Positions 29,005 to 32,621 of a stretch of DNA of 64,000 bases are shown here, one piece after another (position 1 is the stretch's first letter; each line of letters begins with the position of its first letter). Made by a program: the position numbers and the translations under genes. Below the pieces are notes generated by a model, which worked only from the letters and a program-made list of their open reading frames with translations, had not been told where the DNA came from and searched no databases. The stretch is from an uncultured Micavibrio sp. (GTDB taxonomy: Bacteria; Pseudomonadota; Alphaproteobacteria; Micavibrionales; Micavibrionaceae), in NCBI GenBank assembly GCA_965263215.1, contig OZ253663.1, positions 2,220,656 to 2,284,655 on the forward strand, read 5' to 3'.

Positions 29005-29364
29005 CTAAAAAATCAGCTTTTCTATCGACTTTATTAGTTCCTTGTCACCTTTTTTATCTAAAGCTATAGCAAGCTTTAAAGCCTGATCTGAAATATCGTC
29101 TAAAAAACTATGTTGAGTATCAGTTACGCCTTTATAGAAATCCAAGATCGGTACGTTTGTAGCTTCAGAAATTTTGAACAACATAGACGCTGATATCCTG
29201 TTTATACCTGTTTCGTATTTTTGAACTTGCTGAAATGTAATGTCCAGCTCTTTACCCAACCTCGTTTGACTAAAACCTTTGGCCTTTCTAATTTTTAACA
29301 AGTTAGAGCCTATAATCTTGTCTATGTCCGTTGGCCGACCTTTTGTTTTCCAGGCAGATGTCAT
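29005..29364 (-). CDS. XRE-family HTH transcriptional regulator
   Basis: LLKIRKAKGFSQTRLGKELDITFQQVQKYETGINRISASMLFKISEATN is the Cro/C1 HTH pattern. The ATG at comp. 29362-29364 has AAAGG 7 nt upstream. Confidence 0.8.
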   Translation of the reverse strand: MTSAWKTKGRPTDIDKIIGSNLLKIRKAKGFSQTRLGKELDITFQQVQKYETGINRISASMLFKISEATNVPILDFYKGVTDTQHSFLDDISDQALKLAIALDKKGDKELIKSIEKLIF

Positions 29365-29497
29365 TAGATGACCTTTTGTTTTTATGCACAGCAAGTTATA
29401 GTTGTGCGTGGTTGTTTTATTTATCAAACTCCACTTTAAGCTTTAAGTGAGTATCTATGTATAAATAATAGTTACTCAAAAAACAAAAAGTTATTTT

Positions 29498-30235
29498 ATG
29501 CATAGGTTAACATTTGAACAAATTGAAACGTATCTCTTAAGTATTAATTCTTGCAACACCTTAGATGAGATACTGGCTGTTTTACAAAAACAGATACGGT
29601 TTTATGGCTTTGATAGATTTACCTACTGGCTTCGCTGGCCTACTTCTGACATACACGAACCAATCTTTATTTCCACTTACCCTGACAGCTTCATTGAACA
29701 ATATATAGCAAACGATTATCAAAGCCATGATATGGTTGGACGGTTTTCTATGGAAGCAAATACACCGTTTAAATGGTCAGATATAGCAAAAAGATACCCA
29801 ATCACTAAAGGGCAGAAGATGATATATGACGATAGTCGTGCTGTCGGCCTTATATCTGGAGGAAGCATACCTATACACGGACCTAAGCAAATAGAGGCAA
29901 CGTTCTCCGTCGTAAGCGATCTTAATGAAAAAAATTTCGATGAAACATTTTTTAAGGTTCGGCATGAATTACACATTCTAGCCACCTATGCTCATGAGAG
30001 AATTCTACAACTTGGCCTACATGAAAGTACAAACCAGCTTTCGTTAACGATTAGGGAAACAGAAATTTTGACATGGGTCGCGAGAGGTAAAACATACTGG
30101 GAAATTGGTAATATTCTAGGCATTCAAGAAGATACTGTTAAGAAGTTCATGCAAAGAATTTTTGGTTTACTAAACGTTTCTAATAACACACATGCTGTAG
30201 CAAAAGCGATTATCAATGGCTTAATTATTCCTTAG
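29498..30235 (+). CDS. luxR: LuxR-family autoinducer-binding transcriptional regulator
   Basis: 245 aa. The N-terminal autoinducer-binding-type region reads FDRFTYWLRWP...YPDSFIEQYIANDYQSHD. The C-terminal GerE HTH reads LTIRETEILTWVARGKTYWEIGNILGIQEDTVKKFMQRIFGLLNVSNNTHAV. Confidence 0.85.
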   Translation: MHRLTFEQIETYLLSINSCNTLDEILAVLQKQIRFYGFDRFTYWLRWPTSDIHEPIFISTYPDSFIEQYIANDYQSHDMVGRFSMEANTPFKWSDIAKRYPITKGQKMIYDDSRAVGLISGGSIPIHGPKQIEATFSVVSDLNEKNFDETFFKVRHELHILATYAHERILQLGLHESTNQLSLTIRETEILTWVARGKTYWEIGNILGIQEDTVKKFMQRIFGLLNVSNNTHAVAKAIINGLIIP

Positions 30236-30329
30236 TCTCCTATATTTTAAATTGTTTTGTCGTAAAAGATTCTGACGTGCTTTTTTCGAATCTAAAGCAA
30301 CCATCTGCCCAAAATAAAAAATTGAAAAG

Positions 30330-30341
30330 ATAGTGCACTAT
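30330..30341. promoter_or_regulatory. perfect 12-bp palindrome ATAGTGCACTAT upstream of luxI (lux/tra-box-like candidate)
   Basis: It lies about 70 nt upstream of the preferred luxI start. The GTGCAC core is reminiscent of the tra box ATGTGCAGATCTGCACAT. Confidence 0.3.
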
Positions 30342-30411
30342 AGTGGAATTGTCTGTTCCTGAGATTTCTATAAAAACTTACACGATACAAAAACCGTGTG
30401 AGGAATTAGCC

Positions 30412-31101
30412 GTGATAGAGATTATTCAAGCTGGACAAAGCGGTAAGACTGAGAGTCTGATCGAAATGCACAGAGTAAGAAAATTCATTTTCAAAGATCG
30501 CATGGGATGGGATCTAGACATTTCTGATGATGAATTGGAGATCGATAATTACGATCTTCCTGAGACCGTCTATATCCTTGCAAGAGACGACAAGAAGAGG
30601 ATATCTGGCGTTTGGCGAATGTTGCCTTCCACAAGCCCATCAATGATAAGAGACCTTTGGCCTGAGTTTTTGACAGAATTCCCTATGCCTCAAGACTTTT
30701 CCACCTGGGAAGTCAGTCGTTTCGGTGTTCACTCTTACGACAATAATAGAAGAAGTAGCCTCTTAAATTTCAATGACATCACAGCAAAACTCATCACTGG
30801 CCTTGTGACTGTTTGCAACATGGCAAACATTGAAAATATATACACAATGTACAACCCACAAGTAGGACGTGCCGTAAGTAGTACTGGTTTTGTAGCAAAC
30901 AACACCTCTGAAGAACTTTTAGTAGAAGGAAAACCGTCAATAGTAGGACGCTTTAAAACTGACCAACGAATGCTCAAAGACGTCAATGAGAAGACTGGCA
31001 TAGATTTCAACTTGTCCTTCGAAGATCTTCCACCTCAATTTTCTGAATCAATCATTAAACATAGCAAACCTGATTTAAAGAAAGGCTTAAAATATGCTTG
31101 A
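30412..31101 (+). CDS. luxI: acyl-homoserine-lactone synthase (LuxI family)
   Basis: Family signature: RVRKFIFKDRMGWDL...EIDNYD...YILARDDKKRISGVWRMLPSTSPSM...WEVSRFGV. The GTG at 30412 is preferred, with GAGGAA 6 nt upstream. The track ORF begins at a GTG at 30343. Confidence 0.85.
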   Translation: MIEIIQAGQSGKTESLIEMHRVRKFIFKDRMGWDLDISDDELEIDNYDLPETVYILARDDKKRISGVWRMLPSTSPSMIRDLWPEFLTEFPMPQDFSTWEVSRFGVHSYDNNRRSSLLNFNDITAKLITGLVTVCNMANIENIYTMYNPQVGRAVSSTGFVANNTSEELLVEGKPSIVGRFKTDQRMLKDVNEKTGIDFNLSFEDLPPQFSESIIKHSKPDLKKGLKYA

Positions 31102-31318
31102 CGAGCTCGTGATCAAAAATAAAGAAGAAAATTTAATTTCTGACGAGGTAATTATAAATCAGCTCAAAGAAATAGTCTTCGAAAACACATCAACTGAGAA
31201 CGAATTAAGACATGCAAAAGATTACGCAAACGAAATATGGAAGTTGGCAAAGAAAAATGGGTGGAAGAAGGCCGAATATTTCGCGGATATGATCAGAAAC
31301 GCTTTAGATTCTGAGTAA
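31094..31318 (+). CDS. hypothetical small protein, translationally coupled to luxI
   Basis: 74-aa ORF whose ATG overlaps the luxI 3' end by 8 nt. Confidence 0.5.
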   Translation: MLDELVIKNKEENLISDEVIINQLKEIVFENTSTENELRHAKDYANEIWKLAKKNGWKKAEYFADMIRNALDSE

Positions 31319-31352
31319 ATCACTAACACATGCTGAAAAAAGGAATAATAAA

Positions 31353-32261
31353 ATGACGAAAGTACAAACCGTAAATGCAAAAACTAATGTAGCGAAAATC
31401 ATAGACATCATCAAACAAGATGGATGTGTTGTGATTGAAGGCCTGTTATCACAAGAAGAAGCGAATAGCTTACAAAATGATATGCATGAGCAATTTGATA
31501 AAATAAAGGATTGCAAAGGTGACTTTTATGGGCATGAAACAAAAAGAATGGGTGCGCTATTCAAGAAGTCTTCAGTTTTTCAAAAAATGGCTGTATTCGA
31601 CCCTATAATCGAAATCATGGATAATTTTTTACTTGATCATTGTAGTGATTATCAAATCAATCTTACGCAAGCCATATCTATAGGCCCAAAAGAAATCAAA
31701 CAAATAATGCATCAAGACGACCCGATGTTCCCGTTTATGCATCCTGACAATGAAGTTATGATTAATTGTATGTGGGCAGTGGATGAATTTACAGAAGAAA
31801 ACGGAGCGACAGTGCTCGTGCCGGGCAGTCATTTATGGCCCAGAACACAGTCGTTAAACTTATCTTTTGAAAATCTCCCTCCTGAGATGATTACTCAAGG
31901 TGTCATGAAAAAAGGTTCCGTTCTCATATATTTAGGGTCTTTATACCATTCAGGGGGAGAAAACAGAACGCAAGAAAGGCGTTGTGGTGCAGTCATTAGC
32001 TATTCACTGGGATGGCTCAGACAGGCAGAAAATAGCTATCTAGCATATACACCAGAAGAAGTTCGGGAGATGCCTGAGAGATTAAAGCGTTTGCTGGGGT
32101 ATTTTGTACACGAACCCAATCTCGGTTCTGTAGAAGGTATTGATCCTTACGACTATGCACTCAACAACAAAAGAAATGAAGAATTTACTGAATTCGTACC
32201 CGAGTTTGTCAAGCCTGTTCTAAAAGAATACAGAGAAGATCAGCTTAAGAAGGCTGGCTAG
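31353..32261 (+). CDS. phytanoyl-CoA dioxygenase (PhyH) family Fe(II)/2-oxoglutarate oxygenase
   Basis: 302 aa. It has the HxD facial-triad motif (IMHQDDP), a distal His (LYHSGGENRT) and Arg. An AAGGA RBS is present. It sits 34 nt after the small ORF on the same strand as luxI. Confidence 0.75.
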   Translation: MTKVQTVNAKTNVAKIIDIIKQDGCVVIEGLLSQEEANSLQNDMHEQFDKIKDCKGDFYGHETKRMGALFKKSSVFQKMAVFDPIIEIMDNFLLDHCSDYQINLTQAISIGPKEIKQIMHQDDPMFPFMHPDNEVMINCMWAVDEFTEENGATVLVPGSHLWPRTQSLNLSFENLPPEMITQGVMKKGSVLIYLGSLYHSGGENRTQERRCGAVISYSLGWLRQAENSYLAYTPEEVREMPERLKRLLGYFVHEPNLGSVEGIDPYDYALNNKRNEEFTEFVPEFVKPVLKEYREDQLKKAG

Positions 32262-32291
32262 AGAACGAGTAATCGCAAATAAAATAAGCCC

Positions 32292-32621
32292 ATGTCAACT
32301 AAAGAGCTACATATGAATAATTATCTAAAAATAGCTACTGTGACGATAGTCTTTGTGAGTCTTTTAAACATTAATGTAACAAATGCGCACGAAATTAAAC
32401 ACAATGAATGCTTTTGTCATCAACACGAAAAGCAAGAGACTAATTTTTCAGATATTACGGATTTAAGACAATATAATAACTATAGCTTTCACCGTGATGA
32501 GCAGGGTAGATTCTGCGCCCACCCCAAGAACGGTTGGATTTCTTTTAACTGCCGCGAAACCCCATTCACCATCGAGCCCGACATAAAAAAATATGAAACG
32601 CTGGATAAGAAATCGAACTAA
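32292..32621 (+). CDS. hypothetical secreted small protein
   Basis: 109 aa with a signal-like segment IATVTIVFVSLLNINVTNA. His/Cys-rich mature part. Confidence 0.55.
   Translation: MSTKELHMNNYLKIATVTIVFVSLLNINVTNAHEIKHNECFCHQHEKQETNFSDITDLRQYNNYSFHRDEQGRFCAHPKNGWISFNCRETPFTIEPDIKKYETLDKKSN

Follow-up and report, generated by a model that had tools for sequence, protein, structure and literature searches.

Why does the gene of an oxygenase stand behind the genes with which a bacterium makes and senses a signal? This question is raised by a locus (29005-32621) in a 64-kb stretch of DNA from an uncultured Micavibrio sp. (contig OZ253663.1), which is called the window here and to whose positions all coordinates refer unless another locus is named. 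The locus contains a luxR gene and a luxI gene for quorum sensing by N-acyl-homoserine lactones (AHLs), a small open reading frame (ORF), orf74, the gene of a PhyH-superfamily Fe(II)/2-oxoglutarate (2OG) oxygenase, for short PhyH, and, divergent from luxR, the gene of an XRE-family regulator. AHL diversity is normally ascribed to the acyl pool and to the specificity of the synthase, and to our knowledge no dedicated AHL-modifying enzyme has been established within a signalling circuit itself. The explanation to which we give an even chance is that the cassette is a self-contained mobile AHL quorum-sensing unit, in which LuxR drives luxI-orf74-PhyH, orf74 is an anti-regulator and PhyH acts on the signal. 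According to this model LuxI, which is closest to the acyl-acyl carrier protein (acyl-ACP) enzyme LasI, would make an AHL, and the signal-bound LuxR would bind the palindrome at 30332-30349 and thereby switch on luxI-orf74-PhyH as a single autoinduced operon. The orf74 product, made in step with LuxI, would by analogy bind and neutralise a transcription factor, most likely the XRE protein of the cassette. PhyH, always co-induced with the synthase, would most likely hydroxylate or desaturate the AHL or its acyl chain, thus finishing the signal or turning it over, which is the weakest step of the model.

Spread, gene orders and lux boxes of the module

Species-representative genomes were searched with a LuxI alignment, and metagenomes were searched separately with an alignment of PhyH alone, which returned 80 loci. 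Nine of the ten genome loci with at least 42% LuxI identity have luxR, luxI, a gap and then PhyH. In the metagenomes luxR and/or luxI stands beside PhyH in 57 of the 80 loci and in 19 of the 22 that have at least 2 kb on both flanks, and a lux box or the tail of a small ORF lies 5' of PhyH in six more loci that are truncated. A first-pass annotation of the locus had allowed for the case that luxI and PhyH are linked in no other genome, a possibility that fails decisively in view of these counts. The genome loci with the module belong to Alphaproteobacteria known as metagenome-assembled genomes (MAGs), to an uncultured Micavibrio, Gemmobacter, Nitrospira, Nitrospina and Hyphomicrobium; the loci L009 and L010 have luxR, luxI and a small ORF without PhyH.

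We observed the module in two gene orders. Order (a), luxR-luxI-small ORF-PhyH, is that of the window. In order (b), which is present in about 40 soil and peat loci, PhyH is the first gene of the series PhyH-luxR-luxI-small ORF and is divergent from a fatty acid desaturase gene, and in most of these loci an XRE gene lies convergent to luxI and the small ORF. One locus, L069, has a gene for a 484-aa cytochrome P450 between luxI and PhyH (L069 3538-4992); the same locus has a 111-aa ORF of the ribbon-helix-helix type 3' of PhyH, which recurs in nine loci.

The palindrome 5' of luxI in the window is presumed, from its sequence and position, to be the LuxR binding site (lux box) that drives luxI-orf74-PhyH. 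A consensus of it, ATTCCACTATAGTGGAAT, is found at the same distance 5' of luxI in L001, L004, L005, L012, L023, L025, L100 and L101, and the Hyphomicrobium loci have a variant of the window lux box. It occurs once in the 64-kb window, compared with 0.02-0.03 occurrences expected by chance, and neither a further lux box nor a copy of the palindromes of the XRE-luxR region (see below) was found elsewhere in the window, the integrase gene included. In order (b) the palindrome of the respective locus is present twice, namely 53-78 nt 5' of the PhyH ATG and 56-77 nt 5' of luxI. We observed four lineage-specific versions, which match within each locus: the two palindromes share at least 10 identical nucleotides in 22 of 25 loci, and in a shuffled control this number averaged 7.2 and never exceeded 10. 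This comparative evidence suggests that the cognate LuxR controls PhyH directly where PhyH lies outside the luxI operon, and since the paired palindromes co-vary between lineages, PhyH appears to be a core LuxR-controlled gene. In the window no convincing promoter or terminator was found between luxI and PhyH. Because of the conserved box, the 8-nt overlap of orf74 with the luxI stop, the 34-nt spacer in front of PhyH and the absence of internal signals, the simplest reading is that luxI, orf74 and PhyH form one operon. The overlap and the spacer had been given in the first-pass annotation and hold at exactly these positions, and its suggestion that PhyH could be quorum-regulated agrees with both gene orders, as PhyH either follows luxI and orf74 with no intervening signals, as in the window, or has its own lux box, as in order (b).

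The proteins of the cassette and their possible roles

Protein domains were called by Pfam and NCBIfam scans of the listed ORFs. LuxI scores 84.6 bits against the Autoind_synth family (PF00765; cut-off 24), and its residues R23, F27, W33, D45, D48, R69, E100, S102 and R103 are invariant across 40 aligned homologues. In the usual LuxI numbering these are the catalytic and S-adenosylmethionine (SAM)-binding residues R24, F28, W34, D45, D48, R70, E101, S103 and R104. From the family and the intact catalytic residues we infer that LuxI makes an AHL. Its closest solved structure is LasI (E 9e-21), followed by BjaI (2e-12) and RpaI (1e-8), and the PhyH-linked LuxI proteins as a whole are, group by group, nearest to LasI, BjaI, TofI or RpaI. 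LuxR has an Autoind_bind domain (100.3 bits) and a GerE domain (49.7 bits), and its best matches among the PDB structures are RhlR, QscR and LasR with alignment over the full length. The six canonical ligand residues, W57, Y61, D70, P71, W85 and G113 of TraR, are not all present, since the pocket of the window LuxR reads FYDMWG instead of WYDPWG, with F64 standing where TraR has W57, and M79 where it has P71. W57 of TraR contacts the lactone carbonyl. The changed pocket is kept in the window clade: F or Y for W57 and M or L for P71 are found in the window LuxR and in all 15 aligned relatives of the clade that bear PhyH, and W57 is retained in the relatives without PhyH, L009 and L010. This is suggestive of a link between the pocket change and the presence of PhyH within the clade, and not of a general rule. 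A general link was considered and rejected, as the receptors of order (b) have the fully canonical WYDPWG.

The oxygenase contains the PhyH domain (PF05721, 108 bits), and its H120-x-D122...H199 triad as well as the 2OG-binding R210 are invariant in 43 homologues. Its structure model (predicted local distance difference test score, pLDDT, 82; predicted template modelling score, pTM, 0.86) has the double-stranded beta-helix fold and matches structures of 2OG oxygenases, so that domain, iron triad, 2OG arginine and fold all place it in the PhyH superfamily. By sequence and by fold the nearest solved structures are PrhA, AndA, SptF, AsqJ, FtmOx1 and 8zyb (E 1e-23; Foldseek E 2e-20). Among the best sequence matches, from E 1e-23 to 1e-11, are the fungal enzymes PrhA, AusE, AndA, SptF, AsqJ and FtmOx1 and the bacterial DhiD (PDB 8zyb), which share the HxD...H motif and superpose with template modelling (TM) scores of 0.7-0.8 (Foldseek E about 1e-20). 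They hydroxylate, desaturate or rearrange free small molecules; however, they are only 21-29% identical to the window PhyH, act on unrelated substrates and have no link to quorum sensing. Orthology to phytanoyl-CoA hydroxylase was rejected, since human PAHX (2a1x) is matched with E 1e-4 over 100 residues, compared with E 1e-23 for the tailoring oxygenases. No signal peptide was found in PhyH, and the enzyme is therefore regarded as cytoplasmic. Within the module PhyH is the most strongly conserved protein: it has 45-59% identity between groups that share only 26-43% in LuxI and LuxR. Judged from this conservation and from the varied LuxI partners, its role does not seem to depend on the acyl type. 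A fatty acid desaturase gene (PF00487, three His boxes) is divergent from PhyH in 38 loci of the series L026-L074, for example at L039 1822-2775, and the lux box in the shared intergenic region may put the desaturase under quorum control as well. Of the evidence at hand, the desaturases and the one P450 beside PhyH hint most clearly that the module oxidises a small molecule bearing a fatty acyl chain, most economically the AHL. Action of PhyH on the signal or its acyl chain is thus our leading guess, because of the linked desaturases, the one P450 and the small-molecule tailoring oxygenases among the nearest structures. A PhyH-family protein that is 37% identical to the window PhyH (hit H11) is encoded on plasmid NC_015708 of Pseudoalteromonas sp. 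SANK 73390 at 82295-83020, which we take to be the thiomarinol plasmid.

The small protein encoded by orf74 has no Pfam or NCBIfam domain. Its model consists of three helices with a confident C-terminal hairpin (pLDDT >90 over residues 41-70), and a fold search returned nothing significant, its best hit being a Rop-like hairpin with E about 1. The 8-nt overlap indicates that orf74 is translationally coupled to luxI, and its counterparts were called independently as genes in L100 and L101. Within the window clade the C-terminal helix carries a conserved motif W..A.YF..K/M (NGW..AEYF.DM / W..T.YFLEKA.ESL), and the protein evolves fast, with 52% identity where LuxI has 82%. Three related proteins were found by a k-mer search and one more by a full HMMER scan of 1.84 billion proteins; the other HMMER matches were long proteins that align with short stretches of the profile, and were set aside as spurious. 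An ORF of 55-121 aa lies at the luxI stop or within a few bases of it in 44 of the 51 loci with enough sequence, and the same test 3' of the PhyH stop was positive in 11 of 44. Moreover, the small ORF stays with luxI where PhyH is upstream of luxR (about 25 loci) or absent (L009, L010), so that by position it travels with luxI and not with PhyH. As a domain-less ORF immediately 3' of luxI, and in the size class of about 60-120 aa, orf74 occupies the place that CinS and MmaP occupy in rhizobial and methylobacterial quorum-sensing loci (see below). From position and analogy we propose that it is a CinS/MmaP-like adaptor, which would act as an anti-regulator of the XRE protein.

How far do these observations decide what PhyH does? 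The first-pass annotation had offered two readings, a tailoring enzyme for the signal and the first target of quorum sensing. PhyH could be a quorum-controlled output enzyme that remodels a lipid or another metabolite, in order (b) together with the linked desaturase, and the AHL would then be an ordinary product of the acyl pool. Several observations weigh in this direction and against action on the signal. A lux box in front of PhyH demonstrates regulation and not chemistry, and co-regulation would be expected of an output enzyme no less than of one that modifies the signal. The canonical receptors of order (b) point to ordinary AHLs, since a ligand bound by such a pocket probably keeps an ordinary head group. 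If PhyH acted on a variable acyl chain, it should diverge along with LuxI; its higher conservation, in combination with diverse synthases, would rather argue for a constant feature of the substrate or for a substrate other than the signal. In addition, some PhyH homologues, 47-54% identical to that of the window, stand without quorum-sensing genes beside outer-membrane barrel receptors of the TonB-dependent or CarboxypepD_reg type (L030, L032, L035, L098 and probably L093). At these loci neither luxI nor luxR genes are present, no lux box was found at the four that were checked, and the enzyme may there belong to the uptake and modification of an exogenous compound. The NovI synthases of sphingomonads were, finally, validated from luxI homologues expressed alone (PMC5012321). 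We nevertheless consider a pure output enzyme somewhat unlikely, as an output gene is not normally tied to luxI and luxR across two independent gene orders, several phyla (Alphaproteobacteria, Nitrospira, Nitrospina) and many mobile contexts, and as the module is not accompanied by any other conserved output gene. PhyH could also act ahead of LuxI by oxidising the acyl-coenzyme A (acyl-CoA) or acyl-ACP donor, whereupon LuxI would load the oxidised acyl group onto SAM. The Pfam family name and the fold would suit such a role, and some PhyH-linked LuxI proteins are nearest to the acyl-CoA enzymes BjaI and RpaI. However, LasI, to which the LuxI of the window is nearest, uses acyl-ACP, LuxI proteins resembling either donor class are found with this one PhyH subfamily, and the similarity to PAHX is marginal beside that to oxygenases tailoring free small molecules, which makes a donor-oxidising enzyme very unlikely. 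Action on the finished signal can be put in a stronger form, according to which the quorum-linked PhyH is the first dedicated post-synthetic AHL oxygenase, either oxidising the signal or destroying it as negative feedback, with W57F/Y and P71M/L as the matching adaptation of the receptor. In this form we consider the idea possible, though rather on the unlikely side.

For orf74 the competing explanation is that the small protein is a partner or chaperone of PhyH or LuxI instead of an anti-regulator of XRE. It takes up a finding from a Nitrospira MAG (L005 6680-7840; protein P0037, 386 aa), in which the small ORF has no stop and runs in frame into PhyH, which could point to a partnership of the small protein with PhyH. 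Within the window clade the small ORF always lies between luxI and PhyH, and many loci have it without an XRE gene, which is present in 19 of the 48 related loci. The fusion, however, is confined to a single protein cluster and retains the normal ATG of PhyH, and the small ORF keeps to the luxI stop even where PhyH is upstream of luxR or absent, so that we regard a partner or chaperone as quite improbable, although a partner of LuxI would be compatible with the tests made here. What weighs against the proposed anti-regulator, apart from the fusion and the scarcity of XRE genes, is that hhalign comparisons detected no sequence homology between the small ORFs of one clade and those of another (probability 0.1-14%). 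Homology across the clades was therefore rejected and the ORFs are taken as positional analogues, and a common function can be deduced from their position alone.

Layout and mobility of the cassette

The gene content observed in the window is listed in Table 1. The luxR and luxI genes with the hallmark residues, orf74, PhyH with its HxD...H motif and the divergent XRE gene had all been named in the first-pass annotation, and the ORF list and the domain scans bear this out in every case. Two gene starts had to be corrected. The listed luxI ORF begins at GTG 30343, which lies inside the lux box; since all of the 71 homologues are about 228 aa long and align from GTG 30412, which GAGGA precedes, the latter was chosen. 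The XRE ORF is open as far as TTG 29427, and its start was set at ATG 29364 because the orthologues in L100 and L101 start there; orthologues of 119-122 aa hold the same position in L100, L101 and L001. The XRE-luxR intergenic region contains the palindromes CACTTTAAGCTTTAAGTG (29432-29449) and TGAGTATCTAT-N9-ATAGTTACTCA (29448-29478). Both are unique in the window, absent from shuffled controls and weakly conserved in relatives, and they are candidate operators. An ORF of 109 codons downstream of PhyH, orf109 (32292-32621), has a counterpart in none of the related loci examined and is therefore placed outside the cassette. That the genes of the locus form one functional unit is supported by these comparisons.

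Table 1. Features of the quorum-sensing cassette and of the island that carries it, with positions in the window
Feature	Position	Strand	Remarks
XRE-family helix-turn-helix regulator	29005-29364	-	119 aa; Pfam HTH_3, E 8e-14; divergent from luxR
Two candidate operator palindromes	29432-29478	.	XRE-luxR intergenic region
luxR, AHL receptor and transcription factor	29498-30235	+	245 aa; Autoind_bind E 9e-29 and GerE
lux box (presumed), 18-bp palindrome AGTGCACTATAGTGGAAT	30332-30349	.	ends 62 nt 5' of the luxI start codon
luxI, AHL synthase	30412-31101	+	229 aa; Autoind_synth E 8e-24; GTG start after GAGGA
orf74, small three-helix protein	31094-31318	+	74 aa; ATG overlaps the luxI stop by 8 nt
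PhyH-superfamily Fe(II)/2OG oxygenase	31353-32261	+	302 aa; Pfam PhyH E 8e-31; 34 nt after orf74
tRNA-Met with attL	13209-13316	+	3' half of the tRNA and 32 nt form the left copy of the 81-nt direct repeat
attR	36671-36751	+	right-hand copy of this repeat (95% identity)
Island integrase, tyrosine recombinase with Arm-DNA-binding domain	20139-21305	-	domain scan
Prim-Pol/AAA_25 primase	17421-19211		in island; domain scan

The cassette lies on an island whose borders we observed as an 81-nt direct repeat (13236-13316 and 36671-36751, 95% identical) that encloses 23.4 kb at a tRNA-Met gene. The first-pass annotation had called the locus island-borne, and these borders confirm it. The island holds an integrase of the P4 type, the Prim-Pol primase and the quorum-sensing cassette, and it also encodes one Ank/Kelch-like protein and one DUF3857/transglutaminase-like protein. 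It is AT-rich, with a GC content of 0.35-0.43 compared with 0.40-0.51 in the flanks, so that the direct repeat at the 3' end of a tRNA gene, the integrase and the deviating base composition together identify a tRNA-integrated island. In an Rfam scan of the island the tRNA was the sole match. The earlier statement that the island abounds in secreted, eukaryote-like proteins is partly right: a single Ank/Kelch-like protein lies inside, and the Sel1 and EF-hand proteins lie outside attR. The closest relatives, L100 and L101, have the exact five-gene cassette with other flanks and with integrase genes or fragments near, and the occurrence of the same cassette amid different surroundings leads to the conclusion that it moves as a unit.

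Several further observations concern the island and its surroundings. The 21-mer TGGGGTATCACTGGGGTAACA lies just inside attL (13351-13371) and recurs around attR at 36523-36543 and 36784-36804, one copy exact and the other 86% identical; the integrase or an excisionase may bind these copies as arm-type sites. A 23,426-nt contig in the Logan assembly of run X1 covers the quorum-sensing region; the island is 23,435 nt long from repeat to repeat. The assembly may have stopped at the 81-nt repeats, or the contig may represent the island excised as a circle. Near-identical 5' leader and start regions (...TTTTCCATACTTTGCC...) precede minus-strand genes of the island at 23209-23251, 25924-43 and 32654-32696, and also at 25381-25409 and 33723-33751. 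The ORFs at 23252-25408 and 32758-33750 begin with identical codons (MIMANMK...), and the leader copy adjoining orf109 has no long ORF behind it. This suggests that the genes with the shared leader are a paralogous, probably secreted family with a common expression signal. Just beyond attR a phosphorelay is encoded (37092-41089), with a response regulator, a hybrid histidine kinase, an MHYT-domain sensor and an Hpt protein, followed by the genes of a 1045-aa EF-hand protein and of a Sel1-repeat protein. The DNA is still AT-rich there, and the region may be the remnant of an older island.

Known systems and biological meaning

The luxR-luxI-phyH synteny is already known for a sister group from the literature of 2010-2016. 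It has been reported from metagenomic quorum-sensing clones (Hao et al. 2010, as cited in PMC3704786 and PMC5012321) and, as novR-novI-phyH or topology T, from Novosphingobium, Sphingomonas, Sphingobium and Sphingopyxis (Gan et al. 2013, 2015, 2016; PMC3704786, PMC4288048, PMC5012321). The authors suggested that phyH is regulated by quorum sensing and called for work on its reaction, and did not assign a function (PMC3704786, PMC4288048, PMC5012321). In the literature we found no paper assigning a function to a PhyH linked to quorum sensing. Like the window, the loci of the Sphingomonadaceae have luxR, luxI and then the PhyH-family oxygenase on the same strand, and they often lie on plasmids or beside conjugation or transposase genes. 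In the plasmid loci L017-L019 (Variovorax, Sphingobium, Novosphingobium) luxI and phyH overlap by 4-11 nt without a small ORF, whereas the window has orf74 between them. The PhyH of the Sphingomonadaceae type is 30-37% identical to that of the window (tblastn) and the LuxI about 30%, and this LuxI is nearest to RpaI, whereas the LuxI of the window is nearest to LasI. The PhyH subfamily of the window is separate from this type and far more tightly conserved, with 45-89% internal identity, and comes with the XRE gene and the luxI-coupled small ORF.

A small protein co-transcribed with an AHL synthase is known in CinS of Rhizobium leguminosarum and in MmaP (59 aa) of Methylobacterium fujisawaense, both of which bind the XRE-family regulator PraR (PMC10790750, PMC4149787). 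The loci cinR-cinI-cinS and mmaR-mmaI-mmaP resemble the window in having a domain-less small protein of about 59-67 aa right after luxI, a likeness of position. However, praR lies elsewhere on the chromosome in these systems and no PhyH is present, whereas the window has its XRE gene inside the cassette. The QseM/QseC pair of the Mesorhizobium element ICEMlSymR7A, a small antiactivator and an XRE-type switch on a mobile element with TraR/TraI-type quorum sensing, has in common with the window that the quorum-sensing genes are carried by an integrative element located at a tRNA gene and that the circuit includes an XRE-type regulator together with a small regulatory protein. The window differs in that neither a lux box nor a palindrome of the XRE region lies near its integrase, and QseM/QseC is not known to include a PhyH. 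New here are the extent of the linkage beyond the sphingomonads, the second gene order with the duplicated lux box, the association with a desaturase, the exact borders of the island, and the luxI-coupled small ORF with an XRE gene in cis.

The association of luxI with phyH has been on record for over a decade with no function assigned, and it now reaches Nitrospira, Nitrospina, Hyphomicrobium, Micavibrio-like bacteria and soil metagenomes. The link persists when the genes are rearranged, and the separated PhyH has its own lux box. By analogy with CinS and MmaP the cassette looks like a third example of a small protein after luxI, here with the XRE partner encoded in cis. If PhyH modifies the signal, the importance of the locus is high: with a post-synthetic AHL oxygenase mobile elements would gain a private communication channel.

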